Assembly (NCBI GenBank): GCA_041663665.1
Contig: JBAYMG010000003.1
Coordinates: 3,991 to 67,990, forward strand
Length of the DNA stretch: 64,000 nucleotides
Direction: 5' to 3'
Source: Candidatus Omnitrophota bacterium
GTDB taxonomy: Bacteria > Omnitrophota > Gorgyraeia > Gygaellales > Profunditerraquicolaceae
The position numbers and the translations under genes are program-made. The stretch's first letter is position 1, and each line of letters starts with the position of its first letter. The notes below the pieces were generated by a model. The model was not told where the DNA came from and made no database searches. It saw only the letters and a list, made by a program, of their open reading frames with translations. Below, one piece after another: positions 15,808 to 55,192 of the stretch.

Positions 15808-15841
15808 TGATTTATCTATGTAAAAATAATATAATGCATCC

Positions 15842-26594: not shown

Positions 26595-27689
26595 ATGTTT
26601 TGGTATACTTATTTTAAAGGGGGAATTCCGGTGGTTTCGCTAAAAGAGCACTTATGTAATTTGGTTACCGGCAAAACAAAAGGTTTGGTGGCTGGGCTTT
26701 TGAGGGGTTTTTTATTTGTGCTTTCTTTAATTTATGGTTTGATTGTAGTTATTTTGGCAGGGTTCTATAGGGCCAGGCCGGTTAAATTTAAAGCTAAAGT
26801 TATCAGTGTAGGTAATATTACCTTGGGGGGTACAGGTAAAACGACTTTTGTTGAGTATTTGGCTGGTAAATTAAATTTAGAAGGAAGGAAGATTGCAGTA
26901 TTAAGCCGCGGTTATAAAAGTAAAAAGCATGACGGCTTGCAAGCCAGGGGTGATGAGCCGGCTATGTTAGAAAAGAAATTGCCATTTGCTCTAGTGTTAG
27001 TTGATAAGAATAGGGTCAGGTCGGCTCTTAAGGCGACTAAAGATTATGCGGTAGATACCTTAATTCTTGATGACGGTTTGCAGCAGTGGCGGATATTTAA
27101 AGATTTAGAGATAGTGGCTATTGATGTCGGCAATGCTTTTGGAAATTCCCGTATACTTCCGGCTGGTTTCTTGAGGGAGCCGCTAAGTGCTTTAAAGCGT
27201 GCAGATGTCTTTCTGTTGACTCAAGGCTTTCTTGGGCAAGATGTAAATGAATTGACGGCTAAATTAAAACGCATAAATTCTCAAGCCCTAATTATTGAAT
27301 CCGTACATCAACCTGTGGGGTTTAGCCCCCTGGATAACCCGGATGAGCTGTTAAGTTTAGATTTCTTTAGAGGCAAAAGTGTAATGATATTTTCTGGTAT
27401 TGGCAATCCCCTGGGGTTTGAAAATAGCATTAGTTCATTGGGAGCCAATATTGCTAAAGCAATTAGATTTAGCGACCATCATGATTATACTATTGAGGAT
27501 GTCGATAAGCTTATTGTTGAAGCACAACGAAAGAAATTAGAAGCAGTTATCACAACCGAAAAGGATGCTGTTAAAATCAGGCAGTTAGGGATAAAGGATT
27601 CCGGCATATCGGTCTTAGGCATAGAGTTAAAGGTAATTAAAAATGAAGCCGAACTCGATCGTAGATTATTCAGCTTGTATTCTTTTTAG
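26595..27689 (+). CDS. lpxK: tetraacyldisaccharide 4'-kinase
   Basis: P-loop VGNITLGGTGKT; 364 aa. The in-frame GTG at 26631, with SD AAGGGGGAA 7 nt upstream, is a better start if the promoter at 26563-26591 is real. Confidence 0.88.
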   Translation: MFWYTYFKGGIPVVSLKEHLCNLVTGKTKGLVAGLLRGFLFVLSLIYGLIVVILAGFYRARPVKFKAKVISVGNITLGGTGKTTFVEYLAGKLNLEGRKIAVLSRGYKSKKHDGLQARGDEPAMLEKKLPFALVLVDKNRVRSALKATKDYAVDTLILDDGLQQWRIFKDLEIVAIDVGNAFGNSRILPAGFLREPLSALKRADVFLLTQGFLGQDVNELTAKLKRINSQALIIESVHQPVGFSPLDNPDELLSLDFFRGKSVMIFSGIGNPLGFENSISSLGANIAKAIRFSDHHDYTIEDVDKLIVEAQRKKLEAVITTEKDAVKIRQLGIKDSGISVLGIELKVIKNEAELDRRLFSLYSF

Positions 27690-29568
27690 GTTAGTAAGCT
27701 TTTTCACAGCTTACTTACCTTTAAATTTCAGTCTTTTTTTTGGCAGGAGGCTGGGTGATCTTATTTATCTATTTGATAGGAAACATCGCTTGATTGCCTA
27801 TACGAATATCCGGCACGCTTTAGCTGATAAAATTAATTGGCAGAGATGCAAAAAGATTACTCGTTCTGCTTACCAGTCTTTTGGCCAGAATCTTATGGAA
27901 ATTTCTTTCATCGGGCGTATAGATAAACAGTATCTTGAAAAATATATCCAAATTGAGAATAAAGATAACATCGATGCTGCTTTTAAGAGAGGTAAGGGGG
28001 TAATTTTCCTGGCGGTTCATGAAGGAGATTGGGAGCTTTCTAATATTATTTGTGCCAATTTAGGTTTTCCTTTTACTTTGTTTGTGCGCGACCAGGGGCT
28101 TCCCCGGCTTAATGATTTACTTAATTCATATCGGCTTAAACGGGGGGCAAAGATTATTCATAAAAAAGCCGGAGTACGCCAATTAATTGAAGTGCTTAAA
28201 AATAACCAGGCGATCGGGATGACTACCGACCAGGGCGGCAAGAATGGACAACTGGTTAGATTTTTTGGGCAAGATGCTTCAATGGCTGTGGGTGCTGTAA
28301 AGTTGGCATTAAAGTATGATTGTTCAATAATTCCGGTTTTTTATACGCGGATTAAAGGTCCTTATACTAAAGTATTTTTGGATCAAGTTTATACGGTTAC
28401 CAGAAGCGAAAACCCTGAGAATGATTTAAAGGATAATTTGCAGAGAATAATTAGTGTCTATGAAAATTATATCCGGAAATATCCTTATGAATATCTCTGG
28501 ACTTACAAGGTATGGAAGTACGGCAAGGATAAGGAAATCTTAATTCTTTCTGATGGAAAAACCGGCCATTTGCGTCAATCAGAAGGATTAGCTAAATTAA
28601 TTAACCAACAGTTGTCCAGCCGGGGCATAAAAACTAATTTGTTTATTAAAGAAGTAAAATTCGGCCGCGAGGCCTTAGTTTGGCTTCAAATAGCCAAAGC
28701 CATCGGCCGCATTGATTGTTTGCGCCATGCTTTAACTGATGAAAGCTGGCAAAGTTTAATGAGTTCTAAACCGGATTATATTATTTCTGCCGGAGGCTTG
28801 ATGAGTGTTCTAAATTATCTTTTAGCCCGGGAAAACCAGGCAAAATCAATTTGCTTAATGAAGCCGTCGAATATCAGCTTAAAAAAATTTAATTTAGTAA
28901 TTGTTCCGGAACACGACGGGAATTTTAAAAGAAAGAACGTCGTAATTACTGAAGGGGCGCTTAATTTAATTGACGCTGATTATTTAAATCAGAAACTAGA
29001 GAGAATAAGGCGCTCTGGCCTTATCAAAGCAGGTTTACTTAATCCTTGTATTGGGGTATTAATTGGAGGAGATAGTAAGAATTTTTCTCTCGATCAAAAG
29101 ATAATAACTAAGCTTGCTGTTCAAATTAAGAAATCTGCTGAAGAGTTAAATGCCAGCCTTTTGATTTCTACTTCACGTCGTACTTCTCCGGAAGTCCAGG
29201 AGCAGGTAAAAAATGAATTTGCCAATTATCCACGCTGCAAGTTGTTGGTTATTGCCAATGAGAATAACAATCCGGATGTTGTTGGAGGAATAATCGGATT
29301 AAGTAATATAATAATCAATTCTCCGGAAAGTATTTCCATGATTTCTGAAGCCGCGGCAGGAGAGAAATACGTTGTCGTATTTAAGGCTAGAGGCCTGAGT
29401 AGAAAGCATGAACGTTTTTTAAAAAAATTTCAAACCAAGAAGTATATCTATTTTAAACAGATTGAAGAATTAGCTGATTGTCTTAACTGGATATGGCAAA
29501 ATAAACCTCAAGTTAATTCTCCCCGGGATGATTTAAAAGTAATTGAGGGTTTAAATAAAATAATATGA
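27643..29568 (+). CDS. fusion: lipid A biosynthesis late acyltransferase (LpxL/HtrB family) + C-terminal ELM1-like (DUF1022) domain
   Basis: N-terminal ~300 aa: TM anchor, then LAVHEGDWELSN (H(X)4D/E-type acyltransferase motif) and the MTTDQGG region typical of Kdo2-lipid IVA acyltransferases. C-terminal ~340 aa starts ILILSDGKTGHLRQSEGLAKL, resembling the SDGkxGHenQ opening of the Mito_fiss_Elm1 family. 47-nt overlap with lpxK. Confidence 0.65.
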   Translation: MKPNSIVDYSACILFRLVSFFTAYLPLNFSLFFGRRLGDLIYLFDRKHRLIAYTNIRHALADKINWQRCKKITRSAYQSFGQNLMEISFIGRIDKQYLEKYIQIENKDNIDAAFKRGKGVIFLAVHEGDWELSNIICANLGFPFTLFVRDQGLPRLNDLLNSYRLKRGAKIIHKKAGVRQLIEVLKNNQAIGMTTDQGGKNGQLVRFFGQDASMAVGAVKLALKYDCSIIPVFYTRIKGPYTKVFLDQVYTVTRSENPENDLKDNLQRIISVYENYIRKYPYEYLWTYKVWKYGKDKEILILSDGKTGHLRQSEGLAKLINQQLSSRGIKTNLFIKEVKFGREALVWLQIAKAIGRIDCLRHALTDESWQSLMSSKPDYIISAGGLMSVLNYLLARENQAKSICLMKPSNISLKKFNLVIVPEHDGNFKRKNVVITEGALNLIDADYLNQKLERIRRSGLIKAGLLNPCIGVLIGGDSKNFSLDQKIITKLAVQIKKSAEELNASLLISTSRRTSPEVQEQVKNEFANYPRCKLLVIANENNNPDVVGGIIGLSNIIINSPESISMISEAAAGEKYVVVFKARGLSRKHERFLKKFQTKKYIYFKQIEELADCLNWIWQNKPQVNSPRDDLKVIEGLNKII

Positions 29569-31658
29569 AAATATTGCAGATATTGCCTGAACTTAATGTC
29601 GGAGGAGTTGAAACCGGGACTTTGGATTTATCCAAATATCTGGTTCGGCTGGGACATAAATCAGTAGTTGTTTCTGCCGGCGGGAGTTTGGTTAAAGAAT
29701 TAGAATCCGGAGGCGCTAAACATTATACCTTAGCAGTAAACAAGAAATCGATTGTTTCTATGTTCAAGTTGGTTCCGGAATTAGTTAAGATAATTAAAAA
29801 AGAAGAGATTGATATTGTGCATGCTCGTTCAAGGGTGCCGGCTTGGATCGCTTATTTTGCCTGTCGGCGGACCAAAGCAGTATTGATTACTACTTGCCAC
29901 GGTTATTATAAAAAACACTTTTTTGGTTTAGTCATGGGCTGGGCAAAAAGAGTAATTGCTATAAGCAATGTGATTGCCAGGCATATGATCGATGATTTTT
30001 CTGTTCCGCATGATCGTATTAAGCTTGTGCCGCGCAGCGTAGATTTAGAGAAATTTAAGTACCTTGACCCTAAAGAAAAAAGAAAGGAAGTTTTTAATGT
30101 CGGCATTATCGGCAGGATTACTCCACTCAAGGGACACTTGCATTTTATTAAGGCTATGGCGCATCTTTCCCGGGTTATTCCGCGCTTAAAGATTTGGATT
30201 GTCGGGGATGCTCCTGCTTCGAAGGAAGCGTATAAAGAAGAAGTCCAGGTTTTAGTCCGCAGGCTCGGGCTTTGGCATTGCACGCAGTTTTTGGGTACGC
30301 AGCGGGATATTCCTGGAATACTGGCGAATTTGGATTTAGTAGTTTTGTCGACTACAACCCATGAAGCATTCGGCCGGGTGGTGGTTGAGGCCCAGGCTGC
30401 TGGAGTACCGGTGGTAGCTACCAAGGTCGGAGGCGTAATTGATATTATTGAGGATGGTAAAAATGGGCTTCTTGTGCCTCCGGCAGATCACAAGAGTATG
30501 GCTGAAGCTGTGCTGCGGATATACAAGGATGTGCAATTAGCAAGAGAATTAGCTGAGAATGCTTATGCTAAGGTTAAAGAAAAGTATAATGTGGAATTAA
30601 TGGTTAAAAATACCCTGGATGTTTACCGGGATGCTTTAAGTAATTTTAAAATTCTAATCATTAAGCTTAGTTCTTTAGGGGATGTAATTCTAACTACCGC
30701 GGCGTTAAGGGCTATCCGGGAAAAATTTCCCCGGCCGAATTTTAAAATAAGCTTTTTAATTGGTGAAGAATCTAAGGATATACTTTTGAGGAGCCCTTAC
30801 ATTGATGAACTGTTAGTTTGTGACCTAAAGAATAAAGATAAAGGTTTATCCGGCTTATGGAACGTTGGGAATATTTTACGCAAGAAATATTTTGACATGG
30901 TCATCGACCTGCAGAATAGCCGGGCAAGCCATGTATTATCTTATTTAAGCGGTTCGATTAACCGGTATGGCTATGACAACAATAAATTTTCTTTTTTACT
31001 TAATCATACTATTAGAGATGACAAGTCGTTGATTGATCCGGTAACTCATCAATTTAGAATTTTAAAAATGCTCGGAATTGATCTTTTGAATAGCCGTCTT
31101 GAGCTTTGGCCGTCTATGGAAGATAGTAAAGCTATGGATGAGCTTTTGAACGCCCAGTGGGTAAGCCAGGCGCAAAAGATTGTTGGGATTAATATTAGTG
31201 CTTCTAAAAGGTGGAATACTAAAATTTGGCCGCTGGAATATCTAGTCTGTTTGTGCGAAGAATTAGGATTAAAAGATATACGTGTGGTAGTCACCGGTAC
31301 AGCTAGCGATATTTCTTTTGCTAACCGGTTGATTGGTTCAATAAAAAATACGAAGATTATCAATGTTTGTGGTAAAACCAGCATAAACGAGTTAGCGGCT
31401 TTAATTAGTAAATGTAACGTATTTATTTCTGCGGATTCTTCTCCGCTGCACGTTGCTTCTGCTGTTGGCACTGCTTTTGTTGCGTTGTTTGGCCCGACTG
31501 ATTACCGCCGGCATTTACCTCCCGGTAAAAATTGTGTTGTAATTAGCAAGAACCTGAATTGTAGCCCTTGTTATAAAACTAGCTGCCGGTCTAAGCGCTG
31601 TATGGCTGAGATTAAACCCAATGAAGTATTTGAAGCTGTGGTAAAATTGCTTAAATGA
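29565..31658 (+). CDS. bifunctional glycosyltransferase: N-terminal GT4 (GT-B, retaining) + C-terminal GT9 (heptosyltransferase-like) domains
   Basis: N-terminus MKILQILPELNVGGVETGTLDL...E(X)7E-type region VVEAQAAGVPVVATKVGG. C-terminus ILIIKLSSLGDVILTTAALRAIREKFP and ADSSPLHVASAVG (GT9 signatures). 697 aa. Confidence 0.8.
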   Translation: MKILQILPELNVGGVETGTLDLSKYLVRLGHKSVVVSAGGSLVKELESGGAKHYTLAVNKKSIVSMFKLVPELVKIIKKEEIDIVHARSRVPAWIAYFACRRTKAVLITTCHGYYKKHFFGLVMGWAKRVIAISNVIARHMIDDFSVPHDRIKLVPRSVDLEKFKYLDPKEKRKEVFNVGIIGRITPLKGHLHFIKAMAHLSRVIPRLKIWIVGDAPASKEAYKEEVQVLVRRLGLWHCTQFLGTQRDIPGILANLDLVVLSTTTHEAFGRVVVEAQAAGVPVVATKVGGVIDIIEDGKNGLLVPPADHKSMAEAVLRIYKDVQLARELAENAYAKVKEKYNVELMVKNTLDVYRDALSNFKILIIKLSSLGDVILTTAALRAIREKFPRPNFKISFLIGEESKDILLRSPYIDELLVCDLKNKDKGLSGLWNVGNILRKKYFDMVIDLQNSRASHVLSYLSGSINRYGYDNNKFSFLLNHTIRDDKSLIDPVTHQFRILKMLGIDLLNSRLELWPSMEDSKAMDELLNAQWVSQAQKIVGINISASKRWNTKIWPLEYLVCLCEELGLKDIRVVVTGTASDISFANRLIGSIKNTKIINVCGKTSINELAALISKCNVFISADSSPLHVASAVGTAFVALFGPTDYRRHLPPGKNCVVISKNLNCSPCYKTSCRSKRCMAEIKPNEVFEAVVKLLK

Positions 31659-42792: not shown

Positions 42793-43668
42793 ATGAAAAC
42801 TGAAGTTAAGAAATTGGATAGTTCTAAATGTGAAATTAGTGTGGCGGTAAGCGGGGAGTTGGTTAAAAATAAGTTTGAAACTGTTTTTTCTCAAGTGGCC
42901 AAAGATGCTAAAGTTCCCGGTTTCCGCCCGGGTAAAGCGCCAAGAGATGTTTTAGAGAAACATTATGCTTCTCTTGTCCATGAGCAAGTTTTAAAAGAAT
43001 TGGTTCCGGATGTTTATAATCAGGCAATTGAAGCTGAAAAACTTGATGTAATTGAATTGCCTCAGATAACCGACGTGAAACTTGATCGCAGCAATCTTTC
43101 TTTTAAGGCTGTTGTCGAAGTAACCCCTGAGATTGCGGTTAAGAATTATAAGAATCAAAAAATTAACTTTAAAAAAATCGAGGTAACCAGCGAAGAGATA
43201 AAAAAACAGATTGATTCGGTTAAGGAATCGCGGAAGGCTGAAACTGTTAATGAGAAATTTTGCCGTTCTCTGGGGTATCCGGATTTAGCGGAGTTTGAGA
43301 AAGCAATCGAGAGGCAGATTTTTATCAGCAAAGAGAATCAGGAGCGTCAGCGAATTGAGAATGAGTTGATTGAAAATGTGATGCAGGGTCTAGAGTTTAA
43401 GCTGCCTCAAGGCTTGGTTGCCCGGCAGACTCAGGATATGCTTAAGTCAACTAAAATTGATTTAGCCATGAAAGGTATCCCCAGAGATAAAATCGATGAG
43501 CAGGATAAATTGCTTTTAGAAAGTATTGAGCCCGAAGCTAAAAAACAAGTTAGGGTGTATTTAGTTTTATCTCAAATTGCTAAAAAAGAGAATATTGCAA
43601 TTGATGATCATATGCCGCGTAAAGTAATGGAATTTTTATTAAGCGAAGCGGAATGGCAGATAATTTAA
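42793..43668 (+). CDS. tig: trigger factor, short form lacking the central PPIase (FKBP) domain
   Basis: N-terminal ribosome-binding domain with GFRPGKAP signature, then directly the C-terminal chaperone arm; 291 aa rather than ~430 aa. tig-clpP synteny. Confidence 0.78.
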
Positions 43669-43682
43669 TAAGGAGGAAAAAT

Positions 43683-44294
43683 ATGCCGACGAAAATGCAA
43701 ACATTTGTTCCTATGGTAATTGAACAGACTCCCCGTGGTTTTGAACGGGCTTACGATATTTATTCCCGGCTCTTAAAAGACCGTATTTTATTTATCGGCA
43801 CTGCGATTGATGATTATGTAGCAAATTTAATTATTGCCCAGCTGCTTTTTCTGCAGATGGAAGATAAAGACAAAGATATCAATGTTTATGTTAATTCACC
43901 AGGTGGTTCAGTGACTGCGGGATTGGCTATATATGATACGATGCAGTTTATTAAGTGTGATATCGCCACTTATTGCGTTGGGCAGGCTGCCAGTATGGGT
44001 GCGCTTTTGCTTGCTGCCGGTACAAAAGGGAAGCGGTTTGTGCTCCCTAATTCCCGGGTTATGATTCATCAGCCGTGGGGCGGAGCGCAGGGGCCGGCCT
44101 CGGACATATCCATTCAGGCCAAAGAAATTTTAAAACTGCGTGACCGGCTTAATGAAATATTGGCGCATCATACGGGTCAGAATTTAGAGAAAATACAGAA
44201 GGATACCGACAGAGATTATTTTATGTCGGCTGAAGAATCTAAAGATTATGGTTTAGTTGATGAGGTAATTTTACCGGAAAATAAAAAGAAATAA
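43683..44294 (+). CDS. clpP: ATP-dependent Clp protease proteolytic subunit
   Basis: Catalytic triad context [24 protein letters not shown] prefer ATG 43683 (AGGAGG 7 nt upstream) over the track start at 43653. Confidence 0.93.
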
Positions 44295-44323
44295 AATAAT
44301 TATATTAATTTAGGGAGAAGAAA

Positions 44324-45460
44324 ATGAGAAAAGAATATTTATTAACACCAGGCCCCACTCCTTTACCGCCTCAGATAAGTTTGGCTATGGCCAGGCCGAT
44401 TATTCATCATCGTACGCCGCAATTTCAGGCGATTTTAAAAGAAGCCAGTGTTGGATTAAAATGGGTATTTCAAACAGCTAATGATGTCTTCATTATTTCA
44501 TCTTCAGGGACCGGGGCAATGGAAGCTGCGATAATTAATTTACTTAGTGCTGGTGATACTGCTTTAGTGGTACATGGGGGTAAGTTTGGCGAGAGGTGGT
44601 CGGAGATTGCTAAGGCTTACAGCATTAAAGTAGAGATTATTGATGTTGAATGGGGCAAAGCGGTTAGCCCTGAAGAAATAAGGAAAAGATTAAAAGCTAA
44701 TCCGGAAATAAAAGCGGTGTTTACTACTTTATGCGAAACTTCAACGGGCGTAGATAATGACCTTGCCTCAATTGCCTCAATTGTCAAAGAAACTTCTGCA
44801 GTTCTAGTGGTTGATGCTATTAGTGGGCTGGGAGCAGTGGATATTAAGACTGATGTTTGGGGTATTGATGTAGTGATTGCCGGATCGCAAAAAGGATTAA
44901 TGCTGCCTCCGGGGTTAGGTTTTATTTCGCTTAGCCCTAAGGCTTGGAAATTAGTTGAGGCCTCAAAATCTCCACGCTACTATCTGGATTTGAGAAAAGC
45001 CAAGAAGGCCTTGGACAAAAACGATACGCCGTTTACTTCCTCGATTACTTTGATTATTGCTTTAAACGAAGCTTTGAAAATAATGCAAAGCGATGGATTG
45101 GAGAATATATTAAAACGCCATAAGACTATGGCTAATGCTACCCGCACGGCAATGAAAGCGCTGGGTTTAGAGTTATTTGCACCAACTGCTGCCTCTGACG
45201 GAGTAACGGCGGTTAAAGTGCCGGCAGGGCTTGATGGTGAAAAATTAGTTAAAACTATGCGTGATACTTACGGAGTGACAATCGCCGGAGGGCAGGATGA
45301 GTTAAAGGGTAAAGTTTTCCGTATTGCACATATGGGTTTTATTGCCGAGTCTGATATTATTACCGGTTTAGCCTGTTTGGAAAAAGTATTGACTCAACTC
45401 GGGTATAAATTTAATTTAGGTTCTGGAGTAAAAGCAGCTGAAGAGGTATTTTTATTATAG
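44324..45460 (+). CDS. class V aminotransferase (phosphoserine/serine-pyruvate aminotransferase type; probable SerC given the serA neighbour)
   Basis: 378 aa; aminotransferase class V fold with PLP-Lys region GSQKGLMLPPGLGF; immediately upstream of serA. Confidence 0.7.
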   Translation: MRKEYLLTPGPTPLPPQISLAMARPIIHHRTPQFQAILKEASVGLKWVFQTANDVFIISSSGTGAMEAAIINLLSAGDTALVVHGGKFGERWSEIAKAYSIKVEIIDVEWGKAVSPEEIRKRLKANPEIKAVFTTLCETSTGVDNDLASIASIVKETSAVLVVDAISGLGAVDIKTDVWGIDVVIAGSQKGLMLPPGLGFISLSPKAWKLVEASKSPRYYLDLRKAKKALDKNDTPFTSSITLIIALNEALKIMQSDGLENILKRHKTMANATRTAMKALGLELFAPTAASDGVTAVKVPAGLDGEKLVKTMRDTYGVTIAGGQDELKGKVFRIAHMGFIAESDIITGLACLEKVLTQLGYKFNLGSGVKAAEEVFLL

Positions 45461-45556
45461 CCACATTTCGTGTTGTTAATATTCGACGCTTTAAGTATTG
45501 CGCCGGTGCGTGTTGATTAGGCAGCGTAAAATAACTATGCGGGTAAGGAGAGTGAA

Positions 45557-47143
45557 ATGATTAAGGTTTTAGTTAGCGATGCGTTAAGCGAGGAAGGTCT
45601 AAAAATATTTAAAGATTGCAAGGAACTTTCCTTTGATGTAAAAACAGATTTGAAGCCTGAGGCTTTAAAAGAAATAATTAAAAATTATGATGCTTTGGTT
45701 GTGCGCAGTGCAACTAAAGTTACCAAGGATGTAATTGCTTCTGCTACGAAACTAAAAGTTATCGGCCGAGCTGGCGTGGGTTTGGATAATGTTGACTTGG
45801 AAGCTGCCACGCAAAAAGGGATTATTGTCATGAATACTCCGGCCGGAAATACTATTTCTACCGCCGAGCATACTTTTAGTATGATTCTGGCTTTATCCCG
45901 GAATATCGCTCAGGCAAATTCTTCGATGAAAAAAGGGGAGTGGAAGCGTTCTAAGTTTATGGGTGTTGAGTCATACAACAAAGTTTTAGGTATTGTCGGA
46001 TTCGGCCGGATTGGTTCAGAGGTGGCAAAACGCGCATTATCTTTTGGTATGCGGGTTTTAGCTTTTGATCCATTCTTATCCAAGCAGGTAGCTGAGGGAA
46101 TTGGGGTGGAAATTGCGGAGTTAAAAAAAGTTTTGCAAGAGGCTGACTATATTACAGTGCATACGCCTTTAACTGATGAGACTAGGCATATGATCTCAGA
46201 TAAAGAGTTTGGAATAATGAAAAAAGGCGTGCGGATTATCAATTGCGCCCGGGGTGGGATTATTGACGAATTGGCTTTAGTCAAAGCGCTTAAAGATGGC
46301 AAGGTGGCCGGTGCGGCTATGGACGTTTTTGAAAAAGAACCGCTGGCAGCCGATAGTGAACTTTTAAAGTTTGATAATGTAATTACAACTCCGCATTTAG
46401 GTGCTTCTACTGAAGAGGCGCAGGTTAATGTAGCAATTGAGGTTGCTGAGATTGTGCGTGATGCGCTCTTGGGGCGCGGAATTCGCAATGCTGCTAATTA
46501 TCCATGCTTAGATGCAGAAGTCTGCAAAATTCTTAATCCTTATATTAATTTAGGAGAGAAAATCGGAATGTTTGCCGGGCAGTTAGTCGAAGGCAGGTTT
46601 GCTGAGGTAACCATAAGCTATAGTGGGCAAATTACTAAATATAATTTAAGCCCGGTAACTATGGCTTTAGTTAAAGGCCTGCTTACTCCGATATTAAAAG
46701 AAACTGTTAATTTTGTTAATGGCGTTTCGCTGCTTAAGGAAAGAGGAATAAAACTTTTAGAATCAAAGTTTGCGCAGGAAGGCGAATTTGTTAACCTTAT
46801 TCAGTTAGATATTAAGACAGATAAGGAGACTAAATCGATTTTTGGCACGCTCTCTAGCAATAAACAGCCGCGAATTGTTAAGATTGATGATTATTATTTG
46901 GAATTGCATCCGGTTGGGCAAATGATTTTTATCCGTAATCTTGATAAGCCGGGGTTAATCGGTAATTTAGGAACCTTGATGGGTAAAAGCGGTATGAATA
47001 TTGCCGCTATGGCTTTAGGCCGTAATAAACCAGGTGATAAAGCCATTAGTGTCTGGAGTATCGATAATCAGGTAGGTCCGGAAATTCAGGAAAAAATAAG
47101 AAAATTGGATAATGTTTTGACGGTAAAAGTAATCAAAATATGA
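45557..47143 (+). CDS. serA: D-3-phosphoglycerate dehydrogenase (with ASB and ACT domains)
   Basis: NAD motif GIVGFGRIGSEVA, catalytic region, C-terminal ACT domain; 528 aa. Confidence 0.93.
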   Translation: MIKVLVSDALSEEGLKIFKDCKELSFDVKTDLKPEALKEIIKNYDALVVRSATKVTKDVIASATKLKVIGRAGVGLDNVDLEAATQKGIIVMNTPAGNTISTAEHTFSMILALSRNIAQANSSMKKGEWKRSKFMGVESYNKVLGIVGFGRIGSEVAKRALSFGMRVLAFDPFLSKQVAEGIGVEIAELKKVLQEADYITVHTPLTDETRHMISDKEFGIMKKGVRIINCARGGIIDELALVKALKDGKVAGAAMDVFEKEPLAADSELLKFDNVITTPHLGASTEEAQVNVAIEVAEIVRDALLGRGIRNAANYPCLDAEVCKILNPYINLGEKIGMFAGQLVEGRFAEVTISYSGQITKYNLSPVTMALVKGLLTPILKETVNFVNGVSLLKERGIKLLESKFAQEGEFVNLIQLDIKTDKETKSIFGTLSSNKQPRIVKIDDYYLELHPVGQMIFIRNLDKPGLIGNLGTLMGKSGMNIAAMALGRNKPGDKAISVWSIDNQVGPEIQEKIRKLDNVLTVKVIKI

Positions 47144-48867
47144 AAAATATTAGAAGCATATTGCTTGTTTTAGTTTTTTTATTTTTAATGAGTAATTTTT
47201 TGTACGCTAAAGATATCACTATTGTCTATAGCGGGCAGACCCACGCTATGCTTTATACTTGCAGCTGCCCTATTGAGCGGGACGGCGGGATTGCTCGTCG
47301 AGCTTCCTTGATAAAGGAATTAAGAAAAAGCGATCCAAATCTTTTACTTTTAGATTGCGGTAGCTTTTCTGCCGGTGGTTTACTGGATGAATATACTCAA
47401 AGTGCCAAGCTGGATATGCAGCGGACACTGGTTAATTTCAAGGCACTGGAGCTTATGCGTTATGATGCCGTAGGCATTAGCTCTGATGAGTTTAATTTCG
47501 GCAAAGAATTTTTTTTAAAAATTTCCCGGACCGCTAATCCTGCTTTCTTAAGCGCTAATCTAGAATCAAGGCAGGTTATTCCCTATGTAATTAAGGATCT
47601 AAAAGGTATCAAGGTTGGGTTAGTCGGTTTGACTGGTCTGGCTGTCAGCCAAAAATCAGAAGGCATAAAGATAAGCGAACCTAAAAAAATCTCGGAATTA
47701 ATCAGCCGTTTAAAACAAGAAGGGGCTCAAGTAATTGTTCTTTTGAGTACGCTGGGTGAGAAAGAAGACTTAAAGTTAATTTCTGAAGTTAAAGGTATTG
47801 ATATACTTTTTGTCGGGCAAAATCCCTTAAAAGATGAGCCACTGACTAAGGTGGATTCTACTTTTATCTTGCGTCCGTTATGGCAAGGGCGTAAAATTGG
47901 TAAATTAACTTTAAAAATTAAAGATGGCCAGCTTACCGATTGTAAAACTGAAGAAATAAAAGTCTCGGAGAGATTTACTGATGACCCTCAGATATTATCA
48001 ATTCTTCCGCGTTGTTATTCTGATGCTAATTGTAAGAAAGAAGGTTTTGCCGGTAATTGTGCAAATCCCGGTGATTTAAGTGCGCAGTGCGTATTTACCC
48101 GGCCAAACGAAATCAGCTTGCGTGTAATTACTGTAAAAGATTGCATTGTTTGTAATGAAGAGCCGGTAATTAATTTATTGAAAAAGAAATTTCCCGGGAT
48201 AGTTGTGAAATATCTTTATTACCCGGATCTTGCTGTACAGGAATTAATTAAGGGCCTGCCGGTAGAAAGCTTGCCCGTTTATTTATTGGGTCAAGAAATT
48301 GAGAAAGAAGATAATTTTTATAGTATAAAGGATGATTTTATATTGGTTAAAGACAGCTATTTGCTTAAGCCTCAACTAAGCGGTTTAGCTTATTTTTTCA
48401 AACGGAATAAAAATGAAGGAAGTCTGGATTTATTTTTTAGTATATTTGAAAAAGATGCGGATAAACTCTTAAGCGCTACCGAGGACCTTAAGCCTAATTT
48501 GCATTTTTTAATAGTTGAAGATGCGCAAGGTTTTACTGCTAAGCATGGTGCTTTAGAAGTGGAAGAGTGTCTGCGCGGGGCGTGTGTGCAGAAATACTAT
48601 CCCAAGGTATTCTGGAATTATTTAACCTGCCGATCTAAAAAAATCGATAGTTCTTATTGGGATGATTGCCTTAATGCAGCGCAATTGCCTGAGATTAGAA
48701 CTTGTGCTAGGGGGCCTGAGGGCATAAAATTGCTTAAAGAAAATATCAGTTTAAGTAAAGAGCTGCAAATTATGTTTGGCCCAACTTATCTTTTGAATAA
48801 TCAGGAGATTTTTTCTCTTCGGGATGTCCCGAAAAAAGAGGAACTTAAGAAAATAATTAAGAGGTGA
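47140..48867 (+). CDS. secreted multidomain protein: degenerate calcineurin-like/5'-nucleotidase-like domain + two thioredoxin-fold (DsbA-like) domains, one with a CIVC motif
   Basis: Signal peptide. The N-terminal half follows the metallophosphoesterase motif order but the metal ligands are substituted (GQTHAM, LLLDCGS, GISSDEFNFG, FVGQNP). The C-terminal half has KDCIVCNEEP (CxxC) and two cis-Pro-loop-like segments (SLPVYLLGQE, GPTYLLNNQE), and is Cys-rich. Confidence 0.45.
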   Translation: MKNIRSILLVLVFLFLMSNFLYAKDITIVYSGQTHAMLYTCSCPIERDGGIARRASLIKELRKSDPNLLLLDCGSFSAGGLLDEYTQSAKLDMQRTLVNFKALELMRYDAVGISSDEFNFGKEFFLKISRTANPAFLSANLESRQVIPYVIKDLKGIKVGLVGLTGLAVSQKSEGIKISEPKKISELISRLKQEGAQVIVLLSTLGEKEDLKLISEVKGIDILFVGQNPLKDEPLTKVDSTFILRPLWQGRKIGKLTLKIKDGQLTDCKTEEIKVSERFTDDPQILSILPRCYSDANCKKEGFAGNCANPGDLSAQCVFTRPNEISLRVITVKDCIVCNEEPVINLLKKKFPGIVVKYLYYPDLAVQELIKGLPVESLPVYLLGQEIEKEDNFYSIKDDFILVKDSYLLKPQLSGLAYFFKRNKNEGSLDLFFSIFEKDADKLLSATEDLKPNLHFLIVEDAQGFTAKHGALEVEECLRGACVQKYYPKVFWNYLTCRSKKIDSSYWDDCLNAAQLPEIRTCARGPEGIKLLKENISLSKELQIMFGPTYLLNNQEIFSLRDVPKKEELKKIIKR

Positions 48868-50108
48868 ATATGGATAAGAAACCAATAATTTATTTGCTGG
48901 ATGTAACCAATCGGGACGGAGTTCAGACTTCACGGATCTGTCTATCTAAATTACAGAAAACCATGCTTAACTGGTATCTTGATCAGATGGGGGTTTCTCA
49001 GTCAGAATTTGGTTTTCCGCTTACCCGCCATGAAACAAATTATTTAAATGCTAATCTGGAACTGGTTAAATTAGGCGGATTTTCCAGAATCAGGCTCAGC
49101 GGTTGGCTGCGTGCGACCAAAGATGATGTCAGAACTGCTTTTAAATTGATCCCGGATTTAAAGTATTTAAATCTTTCTATTTCAACCAGTGATCAGATGA
49201 TTGTGCATAAATTTAAAGGTAAGCTTGATCATCAGTCGATAATTCAGGAAATGCAGGAGGCGGTGCATGTGGCTTTAAAGTTAGGCGCAGAGTCAATTGG
49301 GGTAAATGCTGAGGATGCTTCGCGTACCAATCTGGATTATCTGATTGAATTTTCGCTTAAAGCAAAAGAAGCCGGTGCAAATAGGATTCGTTATTGTGAT
49401 ACCTTAGGGTGTGATACCCCTTTTAGTATTTATGAAAGAATTAAATTAGTGGCTGAAGCAGTGGGGTTGCCTATTGAAGTGCATTGTCATAATGATTTAG
49501 GCCTGGTAATAGCGAATTCAATTGCCGGAGCAAGAGCGGCAACTGACGCCGGAGTAGATTCGTATATTAATACTTGTGTTAACGGTATGGGGGAGCGGGC
49601 AGGAAACGCGGATTTGGTATCAGTTATTCTGGCGCTTAAATACGGTAAAGGAATGTCGGGATATTGCTTGGATGAAAAAGTAAATTTAAAGTTGGCCTGG
49701 AAAATTTGTAAATATGCATCTTATGCTTTCGGAGTGCCTATCCCGATTAATCAGCCGGGAGTTGGAGCAAATGCTTTTGCTCATGAATCCGGGATTCATG
49801 CTGATGGAGCGCTCAAGGATCGGCGTAATTATGAGCTTTATGATTATGAAGAGCTTGGCCGAGGCGAGCCGGAAATAATTGAGACGGGGAGAAAAATTAC
49901 TGCCGGAGAATATTCCGGAATCAAAGGTTTCCGCAATGTTTATGAAAAATTAGAAGTAGTTTTTAAAGATGATGCCCAGGCTACGCGCATATTAGAATTA
50001 GTCAGGTATGCCAATGTCCACAATCAAAAACCTTTAGTTGACGATGAGTTAAATTTTATTGCCAAATATCCGGATATTGCCCATAAGATATTTACCATGA
50101 CACCATAA
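48864..50108 (+). CDS. HMGL-like (DRE-TIM) family synthase: homocitrate / citramalate / 2-isopropylmalate synthase-like, short form
   Basis: LLDVTNRDGVQTS (a variant of the TLRDGEQ motif) and EVHCHNDLGLVIANSIAGARA (HxH metal site); 414 aa with no LeuA regulatory domain. Confidence 0.7.
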   Translation: MNMDKKPIIYLLDVTNRDGVQTSRICLSKLQKTMLNWYLDQMGVSQSEFGFPLTRHETNYLNANLELVKLGGFSRIRLSGWLRATKDDVRTAFKLIPDLKYLNLSISTSDQMIVHKFKGKLDHQSIIQEMQEAVHVALKLGAESIGVNAEDASRTNLDYLIEFSLKAKEAGANRIRYCDTLGCDTPFSIYERIKLVAEAVGLPIEVHCHNDLGLVIANSIAGARAATDAGVDSYINTCVNGMGERAGNADLVSVILALKYGKGMSGYCLDEKVNLKLAWKICKYASYAFGVPIPINQPGVGANAFAHESGIHADGALKDRRNYELYDYEELGRGEPEIIETGRKITAGEYSGIKGFRNVYEKLEVVFKDDAQATRILELVRYANVHNQKPLVDDELNFIAKYPDIAHKIFTMTP

Positions 50109-51390
<1,282 letters not shown>

Positions 51391-51392
<2 letters not shown>

Positions 51393-51440
51393 GTACTTGA
51401 AGACAAAGTACTTGACTATAAATATCAGGTGTGTTATATT
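51391..51440 (+). promoter_or_regulatory. sigma70-like promoter (TTGACT-17nt-TATATT) overlapped by a 10-nt direct repeat AAGTACTTGA x2
   Basis: -35 at 51412-51417 and -10 at 51435-51440. Repeats at 51391-51400 and 51406-51415, each containing the palindromic AGTACT. Lies upstream of the OmpA-like lipoprotein gene. Confidence 0.4.
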
Positions 51441-51480
51441 TAATTTTAATAATTTAGCAAAAGTCAAAAGGAGAGGTAAG

Positions 51481-52152
51481 ATGAAGAATAAGTTTTTTAA
51501 AATCGCTTTAGCCTTGTTTATTTCTTTTAGTTTAGCCGGATGCACCTTTATTTTCCAAAAAGGCAGGCGTTCGGATCTTCAGAAGATAGATGAATTGAAT
51601 GCACAGTTGGATGAACTTTCCCGTTCAAAGGGATTATTGGAACAGAAGCTGGGACAGGAGATAAATGACAAACAAATAAAACTTCAGATGATGGAAAAAG
51701 GTTTAGTCATTACCGTCGTCGGAGATCTCTTATTTGATTCCGGGAAAACTAAAATTAAGTCTGAGGCTTATCCTTTATTAGACAAAGTTTCCGCTGTGTT
51801 AAAAGATAATATGGCACAGTTTAATATCGGTATCGAAGGGCATACTGATAATATTCCGATTAAGGTTTCCGGTTGGAAATCAAATTGGGAACTTTCCACT
51901 AGCCGTGCTTTAAGCGTATTACATTATTTAGCCAATGACCAGGGGATTTCTCCTGAGAGGTTATCTGCGATTGGTTACGGTGAATATCGTCCGGTTGCTT
52001 CCAATGAAACTAAATCTGGGCGTAAACAGAATCGCAGGGTAGAGATAGTCATACTGCCTAATGTTACTAAAATTAAAGGCGATGCTTCTGAGCCATCGGA
52101 ATCAAAAGAACTTCAGCCTGAATTAAAAGAACCTCAGGAAAATCTTAAATAA
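51481..52152 (+). CDS. OmpA/MotB-family peptidoglycan-binding lipoprotein
   Basis: Lipobox LAGC after a signal peptide. OmpA_C domain NIGIEGHTDNIPI...WELSTSRALSVLHYL...RRVEIVIL. ATG 51481 with SD AAGGAGAGG; the track start at 51397 would read through the promoter. Confidence 0.85.
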   Translation: MKNKFFKIALALFISFSLAGCTFIFQKGRRSDLQKIDELNAQLDELSRSKGLLEQKLGQEINDKQIKLQMMEKGLVITVVGDLLFDSGKTKIKSEAYPLLDKVSAVLKDNMAQFNIGIEGHTDNIPIKVSGWKSNWELSTSRALSVLHYLANDQGISPERLSAIGYGEYRPVASNETKSGRKQNRRVEIVILPNVTKIKGDASEPSESKELQPELKEPQENLK

Positions 52153-52164
52153 GAAAAGGCTTAA

Positions 52165-52545
52165 ATGTTTGAAAATTTAAAAAGTCGCGTTGTAATAGTC
52201 TTAGGGATATTGTTAGTATTATTTTTCTTTTCGACGCTTAGTTCATGTAATAGCGCTATGCGTCAGAAAACGGCTCGTGATAAAGAGATGGCTGCGCGCC
52301 TTGTTTTGGAAGAAAAAGTTAATAAGTTTTCCCAGGACCGGGCAGTTCTAGAAGAAAAAGCTAAAGCTAAAGAAAAAGAGGTATCGGAATTAAAAATTAC
52401 GCTTGAAAATGTAAATAAATCTTTGATCCAGGAGCAGATGGTTAATCAAAGTTTAAAAGATGAGCTGCAAAAGGTAGCTAAGCTTAAAGAAACCTTAGAA
52501 AATGATTCGAAGTCCAAGGACGATGGGAAAAAATTTAAAAAATGA
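52165..52545 (+). CDS. coiled-coil lipoprotein (hypothetical)
   Basis: Signal peptide ending in lipobox LSSC, then ~90 aa of a K/E-rich heptad-like coiled coil. Confidence 0.5.
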   Translation: MFENLKSRVVIVLGILLVLFFFSTLSSCNSAMRQKTARDKEMAARLVLEEKVNKFSQDRAVLEEKAKAKEKEVSELKITLENVNKSLIQEQMVNQSLKDELQKVAKLKETLENDSKSKDDGKKFKK

Positions 52546-52586
52546 AATAAGGAGGGGCAGAAAGTCGCAGGAGAACGTTTTTAGTT

Positions 52587-52609
52587 AAGGGGAGAGAATC
52601 CCCTTTTTT
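52587..52609 (+). terminator. rho-independent terminator
   Basis: AAGGGGA-gagaa-TCCCCTT stem-loop followed by TTTTTA, 40 nt after the 52165..52545 stop. Confidence 0.6.
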
Positions 52610-52625
52610 ATTGGAGGGAGGTAAG

Positions 52626-53606
52626 GTGAAAAAAATACTAAAGAATCTGAAGGGGAATCTCAAAAAAATTATTTCTAAGGTAGGTTCTAAAGCTAAAGCC
52701 AAGATTAAGAAGGTTGGTACCTCTAGGAAAAAAGTAAATGACCAAATTCAGAATGAAATTCCGAGTTTTCACGAAACCGCTATCGCCAATACAAAATTTT
52801 CTCATTCGGAAAATGCTGGTATTAAGCGTGCTATGCCGCAGGAGCTTCCATCTTTTTATGATCAAGATAAAATTGTCCTATTGGTCCGTGATCCTCACTG
52901 GCTGCATACCTACTGGGAGTTAAGAACTCAAACCTTTGAAACTGTAAAGAATAAATTGGGTAATGATTTCAATCATTCTAAAAAAGTTTTAAGAGTTTAT
53001 GACGTTAGCAATATCATGTTTAATGGTTCTAATGCTAACAGCTTTTTTGATATTGTAGTTAACGATTTTGCTAATAGCTGGTATATTGAGACAGCAGGCT
53101 CAGGCAGGTCCTGGTGTGTAGATTTAGGTTTAATGCTGTCTGATGGCAGGTTTATTACGATAATTCGCTCGAATGTCGTAACTACCCCTTTAGACGGGCC
53201 TTCTTGGGTGACAGATGAGGAATGGATGATTCCTGACGAAATGTTTGCCAGGCTTTATGGAATGGGTTTTGGCCTAGGTAAAACTTCTCCGGTTGGCGGT
53301 GCTTGGCAGGAACGCATAAAGCAAGGATTATTCAGTTCAGGATTATCTTCAAGCCCGGTGAAAAAAGAAGTTAAGGAAAGAAGTTTTTGGTTAAAAGTCG
53401 ACTGCGAGTTAATTGTTTATGGGGCAACCGAGCCGGATGCAAAAGTAACAGTACAAGGCGCACCGATTAAGTTAAGACCGGATGGTACTTTTACCTTACG
53501 TTATTATTTGCCTGACGGAAAACAAATAATTCCAGTCAAGGCAGTTTCAGCGGATAATGTCGAAGAACGTACTATTACTCCAATTGTAGTTCGAGAAACC
53601 AAATAA
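52626..53606 (+). CDS. DUF4912 domain protein with a Lys-rich N-terminus (GH57-associated)
   Basis: Family membership is inferred from the conserved adjacency with the GH57 gene; I did not verify it from a sequence motif. GTG 52626 after GGAGGGAGG. Confidence 0.55.
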   Translation: MKKILKNLKGNLKKIISKVGSKAKAKIKKVGTSRKKVNDQIQNEIPSFHETAIANTKFSHSENAGIKRAMPQELPSFYDQDKIVLLVRDPHWLHTYWELRTQTFETVKNKLGNDFNHSKKVLRVYDVSNIMFNGSNANSFFDIVVNDFANSWYIETAGSGRSWCVDLGLMLSDGRFITIIRSNVVTTPLDGPSWVTDEEWMIPDEMFARLYGMGFGLGKTSPVGGAWQERIKQGLFSSGLSSSPVKKEVKERSFWLKVDCELIVYGATEPDAKVTVQGAPIKLRPDGTFTLRYYLPDGKQIIPVKAVSADNVEERTITPIVVRETK

Positions 53607-53611
53607 AAACT

Positions 53612-55192
53612 ATGCTTAAAGGATACCTCTGTTTAGTTTTACATGGTCATTTGCCGTTTGTGCGCCATCCGGAACATGAAAATTTTCTGGAAGAAGATTG
53701 GCTTTATGAAGCAATTACCGAAACCTATGTTCCCTTAATTTCTGTCTACGAAGGGCTTGTTCGTGATGGAATAGATTTCCGCATCACTATGACTTTAAGC
53801 CCTACGCTCATTTCCATGCTCGCTGATCCCTTGTTAGAAGAGCGTTACTTAAAGCATATAAATAAACTTATTGAATTATCTCAAAAAGAGATCGAGAGAA
53901 CCAAGTGGCAGCCGGATTTTAAGAATTTGGCGATAATGTACTTCAATAAATTTGTGCATGCGCGGGATACTTTCTTAAAATATAATTGTAACCTGAGCCT
54001 GGCATTTAAGAGATTTCAGGATTTAGGAAAACTGGAGATAATTACCTGTGGTGCTACGCATGGATTTTTTCCGTTGATGGATGTTTGCCGGGATTCGGTG
54101 CGTGCACAGGTTAATGTGGCAGCTAATCATTATTATGATACTTTTGGCAGGAGGCCACAGGGTATTTGGCTACCGGAATGCGGGTATTGCCCGGGCCATG
54201 ATGAGATTCTAAAAAATGCAGGTATTCGTTATTTTTTAACTGATTCTCATGGGCTCCTCCATGGTACACCCCGCCCTAAATACGGAGTATTTGCTCCGGT
54301 TTATTGTAAGGGTACCGGGGTGGCTGCGTTTGGGCGTGATTTAGAATCTTCAAAACAGGTTTGGTCTTCTATTGAGGGCTATCCTGGTGATTATAACTAT
54401 CGGGAATTTTACCGTGATATTGGTTTTGATTTGGAATTTGATTATATTAAGCCCTATATTCATCCTGATGGGGTGCGTATTAATACCGGGATGAAATATT
54501 ACCGTATTACCGGTACAGACAATCATAAAGAGCCTTATATTCAAGAGCGGGCAAGAGAACGTTCAGCAGAGCATGCCGGTAATTTCATGTTTAACCGTCA
54601 GAAACAGGCGCATTATCTTAATGATTTGATGGGTAAGCCTCCGATTATTGTTTCTCCTTATGATGCTGAGCTTTTTGGTCATTGGTGGTATGAGGGCCCG
54701 ATGTGGCTTGATTTTTTATTTCGTAAAATAGCCTGTGACCAGGATGAAATCCGTATGATTACTCCTTCTGAATATTTAAACCAGAATCCGCGTAATCAGG
54801 TCATTACTCCATCGTTATCTAGCTGGGGGTATAAAGGTTATTCGGAGATGTGGCTGCAGGGTACAAATGATTGGATCTATCGTCATTTGCATGTAGCTTC
54901 AGAACGGATGAGCGAATTGGCCAAGAATTTCCCGGGAGCTCAGGGGTTATCCCTCCGGGCTTTAAATCAGGCTTTGCGCGAATTATTATTGGCACAGAGT
55001 TCGGATTGGGGATTTATCTTGGGTACCGGTACACATACTAGCTATGCGATACGCCGCACTAAAGACCATCTCTTAAGATTTAACAAGATTTACGAAGATG
55101 TTAAGTCTAATAATATTGACGAGAGCTGGTTAGCTGATATTGAACATAAAGACAACCTCTTCCCGAATATAGATTACCATCTACATCGGTAA
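53612..55192 (+). CDS. glycoside hydrolase family 57 (1,4-alpha-glucan branching enzyme type)
   Basis: N-terminal LCLVLHGHLPFVRHPEHE signature of GH57; 526 aa. Confidence 0.88.
   Translation: MLKGYLCLVLHGHLPFVRHPEHENFLEEDWLYEAITETYVPLISVYEGLVRDGIDFRITMTLSPTLISMLADPLLEERYLKHINKLIELSQKEIERTKWQPDFKNLAIMYFNKFVHARDTFLKYNCNLSLAFKRFQDLGKLEIITCGATHGFFPLMDVCRDSVRAQVNVAANHYYDTFGRRPQGIWLPECGYCPGHDEILKNAGIRYFLTDSHGLLHGTPRPKYGVFAPVYCKGTGVAAFGRDLESSKQVWSSIEGYPGDYNYREFYRDIGFDLEFDYIKPYIHPDGVRINTGMKYYRITGTDNHKEPYIQERARERSAEHAGNFMFNRQKQAHYLNDLMGKPPIIVSPYDAELFGHWWYEGPMWLDFLFRKIACDQDEIRMITPSEYLNQNPRNQVITPSLSSWGYKGYSEMWLQGTNDWIYRHLHVASERMSELAKNFPGAQGLSLRALNQALRELLLAQSSDWGFILGTGTHTSYAIRRTKDHLLRFNKIYEDVKSNNIDESWLADIEHKDNLFPNIDYHLHR

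Follow-up and report, generated by a model that had tools for sequence, protein, structure and literature searches.

Selenoproteins described as UshA-like have been listed in selenoproteome surveys. One family carries a C-x-U motif (NF041198; U here is selenocysteine), a second one a C-x-x-U motif (NF049981). In the Global Ocean Sampling (GOS) data a 'COG0737 UshA-like' selenoprotein family was reported (Zhang and Gladyshev, 2008; PMC2398784), and the supplement of that study gives as an example a sequence which reads ...TTNVRGQLDPCGUKANPLGGLPRR.... In the literature on these proteins, listed since 2008, no function has been proposed. Here we analyzed a gene from a stretch of 64,000 nucleotides (the window) of a Candidatus Omnitrophota bacterium (GenBank assembly GCA_041663665.1, contig JBAYMG010000003.1, positions 3,991 to 67,990 of the forward strand). 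Omnitrophota are known mostly through metagenome-assembled genomes (MAGs), and the phylum is poorly understood. The gene is a complete open reading frame (ORF) at 47140..48867 on the plus strand, where the initial annotation of the window had put it; it starts with ATG and codes for 575 amino acids plus stop. The product is 100% identical to WCY09_02750, a hypothetical protein of a Candidatus Omnitrophota MAG. It consists of a signal peptide followed by four parts which we call U, K, T and G, all encoded on the plus strand. Going by its sequence relationships, the protein is a variant of the UshA-like (seleno)proteins, of the Cys type and fused to thioredoxin/GILT domains. With little more than even confidence we consider it to be a soluble thiol-disulfide oxidoreductase of the periplasm, with at least two redox centres, and not a phosphatase.

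The U domain and its C-x-C loop

The U domain (residues 24-285; 47209..47994) has the fold of the N-terminal, metallophosphoesterase domain of 5'-nucleotidases, i.e. a calcineurin-like alpha/beta sandwich, with a degenerate dimetal site. Replacement of the metal ligands was judged from a HMMER alignment to venom 5'-nucleotidase and from column counts; the alignments used were A1 with 40 close homologues and A3 with 43 divergent members (27-46% identity). The DxH motif reads Q33-T-H35 and only its His is retained. The bridging Asp of the GD motif is replaced by Ser or Asn at position 75. In GNHE the Asn is Ser or Pro at position 115, the catalytic His is D116, and the Asp of the dyad is N119. 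The His of the GH motif is T204, and in GHxH/N the His is Q227 and the Asn or Gln is P229. Six of the seven metal ligands and the His-Asp dyad are gone in the window protein. The initial annotation had seen a catalytically degenerate metallophosphoesterase in this half of the protein, and the ligand substitutions which it listed are real. They hold in the close homologues, and across the 43 divergent members no ligand column is conserved; column 35, for example, contains His in 20, Tyr in 11 and Phe in six members. As far as the alignments indicate, the ligand loss is conserved and not sporadic. Residues of U which are conserved family-wide are only Gly, Arg, Tyr, Asp and Ser positions, and among them at least the GG.ARR motif also occurs in ordinary 5'-nucleotidases.

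The comparison with 5'-nucleotidase, UshA and CpdB (PF00149 plus PF02872) showed that the window protein lacks the dimetal site, the His-Asp dyad and the C-terminal substrate-binding domain. Neither Pfam Metallophos nor 5_nucleotid_C matched the window protein. It scored 34.9 bits on the UshA model (cutoff 600) and 46.3 bits on the CpdB model (cutoff 486), within a range of 35-52 bits seen for these equivalogs. On the SoxB model (TIGR04486) it reached 63.4 bits against a cutoff of 550; here, too, the metal ligands are absent. Because the dimetal site, the dyad and the C-terminal domain are missing, hydrolysis of phosphoesters or thiosulfonates is not expected. The initial annotation had offered a periplasmic redox or nucleotide-sensing protein as a possibility. 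Of the two, the redox function is the better supported. Nucleotide sensing finds no support as the nucleotide-binding C-terminal domain is absent and the phosphate/metal site is gone.

Searches of the whole protein against Pfam returned nothing at threshold and a lone sub-threshold match to AroM. No NCBIfam model was reached at its cutoff either, in agreement with the initial annotation, which had not recognized the architecture; the N-terminal domain does have a closest family, NF041198 (E 3e-36, below cutoff), with which it has the fold in common. The window protein scored 124.9 bits (cutoff 275) and covered only positions 8-279 of 519, and divergent Omnitrophota members scored 84-146 bits. 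On NF049981 the window protein reached 61.2 bits against a cutoff of 140; its own spacing is C-x-C, and C-x-x-C is found in another clade of this Omnitrophota family. Literature searches for this architecture, including searches within Omnitrophota, yielded no paper which describes it.

The most informative feature was one on which the initial annotation had not commented. The loop T40-C41-S42-C43-P44 (47257..47271) corresponds by homology to the P-C-G-U of the selenoproteins and is a candidate for a vicinal dithiol with redox activity. It lies after the former DxH motif and before the GG.ARR helix, and its consensus is Y-[PT]-C41-x-C43-P. C41 and C43 are invariant in 40/40 close homologues and at 84/84 loci. 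Among the divergent members, 37 of 43 have either C-x-C (PC-NCP) or C-x-x-C (PCGHCP) in the loop. The clades differ in this respect, and the split mirrors the C-x-U of NF041198 and the C-x-x-U of NF049981. The GOS selenoproteins were 25-26% identical to the window protein (E 1e-12 to 4e-20; MAFFT, BLASTP). C41 aligned with their Cys and C43 with their selenocysteine, at the same five-residue spacing to GG.xRR. The P-C-x-[U/C] motif after motif I is common to the window protein, the GOS proteins and NF041198; the equivalence of the latter two is one of shared name and motif. The GOS proteins are also degenerate in motifs I, III, IV and V; they keep the GD of motif II, unlike the window protein. 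On the evidence of these alignments, this 5'-nucleotidase-fold clade shares the trait of having lost the metal site and gained a Cys/selenocysteine pair. The GOS proteins are extracytoplasmic, with signal or lipoprotein leaders, and the window protein is likewise predicted to be exported. When we looked for selenocysteine (TGA) variants in the Omnitrophota family, none was found in the 84 loci; the residue was always Cys.

Bacterial proteins almost always use selenocysteine as a catalytic redox residue. Because it occupies the position equivalent to C43, this Cys is unlikely to be purely structural. By this equivalence the loop is probably redox-active and the U domain not an inert module. The initial annotation had suggested the latter, a pseudo-phosphatase used for binding. 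This is made less likely by the match of the invariant C-x-C to the C-x-U of UshA-like selenoproteins and by the repeated fusion of this domain type to electron-transfer modules (see below).

Thioredoxin-fold domains and domain fusions

The U domain is followed by the short K element (residues 290-319; 48007..48096), with the pattern PxC-x5-C-x8-C-x9-C (C292, C298, C307, C317), which is a beta-hairpin in predicted models. Its cysteines are the sole set of Cys which is invariant in 43/43 divergent members, and the motif is also present in the relatives P0220 and P0162. They are presumed to pair in two structural disulfides. The hairpin was considered as the 'acidic double-disulfide repeat' of NCBIfam (NF033662). 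This was rejected: in P0162 the match to the model is on another Cys element at residues 491-522 and the hairpin is at 360.

The T domain (residues 322-420; 48103..48399) has a small thioredoxin/glutaredoxin-like fold. Its CxxC active-site motif, C335-I-V-C338 (48142..48153), is positioned at the start of helix 1, and strand 3 is preceded by the cis-Pro loop L378-P379, as is typical of the thioredoxin fold. A profile of the C-terminal half (A2) matched thioredoxin h (1wmj; E 5e-4), with the CxxC on WCGPC and L378-P379 on the cis-Pro loop. C335 and C338 are invariant in 40/40 close homologues and at 84/84 loci, and the CxxC is kept in 36 of the 43 divergent members.

The G domain (residues 425-575; 48412..48864) has a GILT/DsbA fold, i.e. 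a thioredoxin fold with an inserted helical domain, and is without an active site. Compared by eye, F436-E437-K438-D439 takes the place of the QCPYG or GCPYC (C-P-Y-C/G) of relatives. In column 437 the six commonest residues among the 43 divergent members are Asp, Glu, Ser, Gly, Tyr and Ala, with no Cys. Four Cys are located in the insert (C482, C497, C510, C522), and the cis-Pro is G547-P548. With the GILT-type domain of P0162, which is Pfam-positive, it has 40% identity and the four insert Cys in common, and the cis-Pro loop is shared with GILT (PF03227) and DsbA (PF01323); in the window protein the CxxC or CPYG active site of these families is replaced and no Pfam threshold is reached. Relatives of the C-terminal module exceed the Pfam GILT/DSBA thresholds, and some are called DsbA-family isomerases by JGI. 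The initial annotation was thus correct in assigning one thioredoxin domain with CxxC and a second, DsbA-like domain; the latter is devoid of a CxxC.

The N-terminus (residues 1-23; 47140..47208) was identified as a Sec-type signal peptide from its hydrophobicity and a conserved junction. It consists of MKNIR, a hydrophobic core and LYA/KD, and has no lipobox Cys. Strongly hydrophobic 15-mers are confined to residues 3-21, the sole hydrophobic segment of the protein, and the junction YA[KQE][DE] is kept in alignment A1. The cleavage site was placed by eye and not with a predictor. These features support the secretion assumed in the initial annotation, and the protein is also Cys-rich, as stated there. 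It contains 15 Cys, of which 13 are invariant across the 40 close homologues, far more than expected by chance.

To examine domain combinations, the C-terminal 293-residue profile was run against 1.84 billion representatives of 50%-identity clusters. Matches at E ≤1e-3 were obtained with 1,893 clusters, of which 363 remained at E ≤1e-30. The best 150 clusters were sorted by hidden Markov models (HMMs) of three parts. The architecture of the window protein, U-KT-G, was most frequent (55 clusters), followed by G-KT-G (46), KT-G (29, some of them fragments) and U-G-KT-G (10). Three clusters combined a multihaem region with G-KT-G, and in two clusters haems, U and G-KT-G were present in one protein. 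The U-G-KT-G proteins have about 790 residues with PCDCP in U, and in most of them the CxxC of the T domain is lost. At least several members have retained an active-site Cys in the extra G domain, as CPYC or CPYG. For this architecture only the states of U and T were used; the HMM envelopes truncated the first G domain. As a separate observation, in P0153 a DUF1573 domain is fused straight to the KT-G module.

The haem-containing relatives were most instructive. A segment of P0220 with four CxxCH motifs matched positions 394-517 of the 519 positions of NF041198 (E 2.5e-32). Therefore, NF041198, members of which include WP_263046620.1 and WP_013162925.1, has a tetrahaem cytochrome c domain at its end. 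The same positions (about 394-517) were matched by the haem regions of P0233 (locus L088, 7001-10078; U-haem4-G-KT-G) and P0254. P0254, a protein of 1207 residues (locus L090, 215-3838), is composed of U(PCECP)-G-KT-G-U(ACGCP)-tetrahaem and scored 376 bits on NF041198, above the cutoff of 275. In contrast, the window protein lacks the tetrahaem end and has no CxxCH. Where NF041198 has its haem end and the GOS proteins have a short helical tail, it carries the hairpin, the thioredoxin and the GILT-like domains. U, haem c and thioredoxin/GILT modules occur in each of the three possible pairs, and some proteins contain all of them in one chain. In every U architecture in the data, U was fused to an electron-transfer module. 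We regard this fusion pattern as the strongest available evidence for U as a redox domain which is served by electron carriers.

Distribution and genomic setting

More than 120 full-length homologues with 58-71% identity were found; all those with a named source organism are from Omnitrophota/Omnitrophica. A scan of one genome per GTDB species found a relative in at least 147 genomes. The best 80 of these are Omnitrophota MAGs, a few of which were labelled 'uncultured Planctomycetales' or 'Patescibacteria group' by the submitters. The named divergent members are likewise Omnitrophota. One U-G-KT-G protein is from Candidatus Firestonebacteria, and the GOS-type, U-only selenoproteins are from Marinimicrobia and Poribacteria.

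Related loci were located with A1; A3 was too variable for this search. The gene (X) is part of an 11-gene block, Tig-ClpP-aminotransferase-SerA-X-HMGL-PurA-OmpA-(orf126)-DUF4912-GH57, which in the window extends from 42793 to 55192. Its members include a class-V aminotransferase, an OmpA-like and a GH57 branching-enzyme-like gene. Order and strand were the same at 84/84 loci, down to an identity of X of about 46%. For a comparison at the level of a phylum this synteny is unusually rigid. In distant orthologues (28-39% identity) SerA-X is kept, but HMGL may be missing or a gene for DUF1573 may have been inserted. The latter, an Ig-like protein, is encoded between serA and the X orthologue in one distant Omnitrophota lineage (L085, 5834-6997). 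The adjacency serA-X-HMGL was considered as a functional signal. It was discarded: the whole block is conserved in the 84 loci and HMGL is lost in distant orthologues. Because HMGL can be absent or DUF1573 inserted, the adjacency reflects a frozen housekeeping backbone. The 126-residue ORF of the block (52165-52545), located between the OmpA-like gene and DUF4912, has no Pfam match. It had a tblastn match at the majority of the 84 loci, and the other Omnitrophota loci that were read have an unannotated ORF of 107-131 residues in this position.

At the upstream junction the start codon of the gene overlaps the stop codon of serA (45557..47143) as ATGA (47140..47143). Downstream, an AAGAGG Shine-Dalgarno sequence (48858-48863) at the 3' end of the gene is followed by its stop TGA (48865-48867) and by the ATG of the HMGL-like gene, together 48858..48872. 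The HMGL-like gene codes for a homocitrate/citramalate-synthase-like protein with HMGL and HCS_D2 domains. It has two possible starts, GTG 48864, which would give a GTGA overlap and is the start chosen by the mechanical ORF call, or ATG 48870. The ATG, six bases past AAGAGG, is the more likely start. At homologous Omnitrophota loci 20-50 nucleotides separate the two genes. Of the translational coupling by ATGA which the initial annotation had proposed on both sides, the part with serA stood; the downstream junction is either the GTGA overlap or has its start at ATG 48870.

The surroundings of relatives are more telling, as they contain genes of thiol or sulfur redox metabolism, in favour of a thiol redox function. 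P0199 (U-G-KT-G) is followed by a rhodanese gene (L089, 8019-8441), which starts 3 nucleotides past its stop, and two cytochrome c3 genes are 3-4 kb further on. Redoxin/AhpC-TSA and OsmC genes are close to other relatives. P0162 (G-KT-G) comes directly after genes for an HMA chaperone, an HMA-DsbD_TM-cupredoxin fusion and a Cu-type P-type ATPase, and a thioredoxin-like gene adjoins.

The other genes of the window are mostly housekeeping genes on the plus strand, i.e. purD, SHMT, aroC, dprA, topA, xerC, kdtA, lpxK, lpxL, heptosyltransferase and Lpt genes. Because it encodes genes for lipopolysaccharide (LPS) synthesis and Lpt transport, the host is a diderm with a periplasm. The LPS cluster contains two gene fusions, one joining a lipid A acyltransferase (Lip_A_acyltrans) to an ELM1-like domain (27643-29568), the other a GT4 glycosyltransferase to a GT9 heptosyltransferase (29565-31658). 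Elsewhere, one ORF (2296-3357) combines Sua5/YciO/YrdC (t6A synthesis) with a low-molecular-weight phosphotyrosine phosphatase (LMWPc). A 311-residue ORF (12971-13906) joins a Macro domain and a NUDIX hydrolase, which suggests ADP-ribose processing. A retropepsin-like aspartyl protease domain protein (gag-asp_proteas / Asp_protease_2) is encoded at 11799-12551 and a STAS-PilZ fusion at 25793-26515. The only large minus-strand gene in the scanned part (13903-15993) codes for a DEAD/Helicase_C helicase with a DSHCT C-terminal domain, the name of which refers to eukaryotic Ski2/Mtr4-type helicases. GC skew was positive in all 2-kb windows (+0.08 to +0.29) and nearly all genes are on the plus strand. 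The whole 64 kb appear to be on one replichore with a strong gene-strand bias.

Possible functions of the protein

Taken singly, the folds are ordinary. Several extracytoplasmic proteins offer analogies to their combination, though not as whole-protein homologues. In protein disulfide isomerase (PDI) a catalytic thioredoxin-fold domain (a) is adjacent to a redox-inactive one (b'). QSOX joins a thioredoxin module to an unrelated second redox module; here the second module would be the phosphoesterase fold with C-x-C and not Erv/FAD. In the comparison with PDI, DsbC, DsbG, ScsC and QSOX, the second module is not a dimerization domain either, and no cofactor is evident. GAP50 (3tgh), a degenerate metallophosphoesterase-fold protein among the structural neighbours, and the lasso-peptide epimerase MslH (8gq9) belong to other subfamilies which have neither a Cys/selenocysteine redox loop nor a thioredoxin-fold fusion.

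As a thiol-disulfide oxidoreductase the protein might operate as follows. After export via the Sec pathway the 23-residue signal peptide would be removed. The Cys of the K hairpin and the four insert Cys of the GILT-like domain would form structural disulfides. The chemistry would be carried out by two centres, the CxxC of the T domain (C335/C338 with cis-Pro P379) and the vicinal C41-x-C43 of the U domain. The old active-site cleft of U, having lost metal site and dyad, would serve as a thiol redox site, in relatives as a selenol site. The G domain, in which Glu stands in for the nucleophilic Cys, would be a non-catalytic substrate-binding or scaffold domain comparable to PDI b'. Electrons might be exchanged between the C-x-C site and a thioredoxin-fold centre next to it, with client molecules as their source or destination. 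The gene is single-copy and in a fixed housekeeping block at every locus examined; because of this, envelope proteins would be the likeliest clients, with formation, reduction or isomerization of disulfides as the reaction.

Several observations weigh against this proposal. The C41/C43 loop is the least confident part of the AlphaFold2 model (predicted local distance difference test, pLDDT, <50 for residues 36-49). The model of the whole protein had a mean pLDDT of 81.4 and a predicted template modelling score (pTM) of 0.60, which leaves the arrangement of the domains open. In 5'-nucleotidases of the CD73 type the equivalent loop contains a disulfide which is purely structural (HMMER alignment). 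The CxxC dipeptides (I-V, A-V, V-T, R-T) fit no well-characterized class of oxidases or reductases. Further, no DsbB, VKOR or DsbD/CcdA partner was found beside the gene in the 84 loci, and none of the DsbB, VKOR or DsbD type in 20 further ORFs of the window. An obligatory relay between the C-x-C and the thioredoxin CxxC would have been supported by joint loss, and the data speak against it. Among the 43 divergent members both motifs were kept in 31, only the N-terminal loop in six, only the thioredoxin CxxC in five and neither in one; the losses were independent (Fisher p = 1.0).

The alternative which fared best is that U is the catalytic domain of an enzyme for small molecules, in which C41/C43 reduce or transfer a sulfur, selenium or arsenic species and the thioredoxin domain recycles them. 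Thiosulfate, polysulfide or persulfide, selenite and arsenate are candidate species for the former phosphate cleft. We regard such an enzyme as rather unlikely. There is a precedent in thioredoxin-coupled ArsC, a phosphatase fold turned into an oxyanion reductase. The selenocysteine at the C43 position in relatives fits such a function, and so does the tetrahaem cytochrome c of NF041198, a partner typical of respiratory or detoxifying enzymes and not of folding catalysts. The rhodanese gene downstream of P0199, near two cytochrome c3 genes, points in the same direction; however, it is a single case and the only context which indicates a sulfur substrate. Moreover, the Omnitrophota housekeeping block is without sulfur, selenium or arsenic genes, no oxyanion-binding residues are identifiable among the family-wide conserved positions of U, and the Cys pair is lost in six of the 43 divergent members.

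A periplasmic protein which binds or handles metal, e.g. Cu(I), with C-x-C and CxxC as ligands as in Cox11, Sco and ScsC-type copper-tolerance systems, is improbable. Such motifs are common Cu(I) ligands, the C-x-C site presumably occupies the former metal pocket, and P0162 directly follows copper genes. Yet P0162 has no U domain, and in the 84 Omnitrophota loci no HMA or Cu genes are near the gene. The Cys pair is not accompanied by a conserved His or Met, as H35 varies across the family, and the matches to ScsC reflect the generic DsbA fold.

Equally improbable, in our view, is a non-catalytic pseudoenzyme with all Cys in structural disulfides, an extracytoplasmic binding or scaffold protein as considered in the initial annotation. 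The degenerate phosphoesterase site, the catalytically dead G domain, the structural disulfide of CD73 and GAP50 as a structural neighbour are in line with it. On the other hand, the T domain keeps its CxxC at the helix N-terminus together with the cis-Pro at 84/84 loci, selenocysteine at the C43 position is hard to explain structurally, and U domains are fused to haem domains. Finally, a genuine 5'-nucleotidase or UDP-sugar hydrolase can practically be dismissed: homologues carry names in JGI/NCBI from 'hypothetical protein' to '5'-nucleotidase' and 'bifunctional UDP-sugar hydrolase/5'-nucleotidase', but with the ligands, dyad and C-terminal domain missing, no ligand conserved in the family, no Metallophos match and equivalog scores far below the cutoffs, the nucleotidase-type names are almost certainly wrong.

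This leaves the thiol-disulfide oxidoreductase as the reading we favour. Beyond the single protein we put forward, as a tentative idea which is possible rather than probable, that the UshA-like C-x-C/C-x-U domain constitutes a new class of redox enzymes. In this class the dimetal centre would have been swapped for a vicinal thiol/selenol centre which fused carriers feed or drain. The carriers would be a tetrahaem cytochrome c in NF041198, thioredoxin/GILT modules in Omnitrophota and Firestonebacteria, and both in P0254. If so, the Omnitrophota protein would be a self-contained periplasmic redox machine encoded by one of the core genes of the phylum, which might stand in for an absent DsbA/DsbB-type system or catalyse a hitherto undescribed envelope reaction on a sulfur or selenium species. 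The C-x-U site has in this protein a Cys-only counterpart which is conserved across Omnitrophota and can be expressed without selenocysteine machinery. A dead phosphoesterase site in both groups, together with the fusions, leads to the testable hypothesis that a phosphatase fold was turned to thiol/selenol redox chemistry. This provides a handle on a selenoprotein family which has been without a function since 2008, and it points to a phylum-specific redox factor in the envelope of Omnitrophota.

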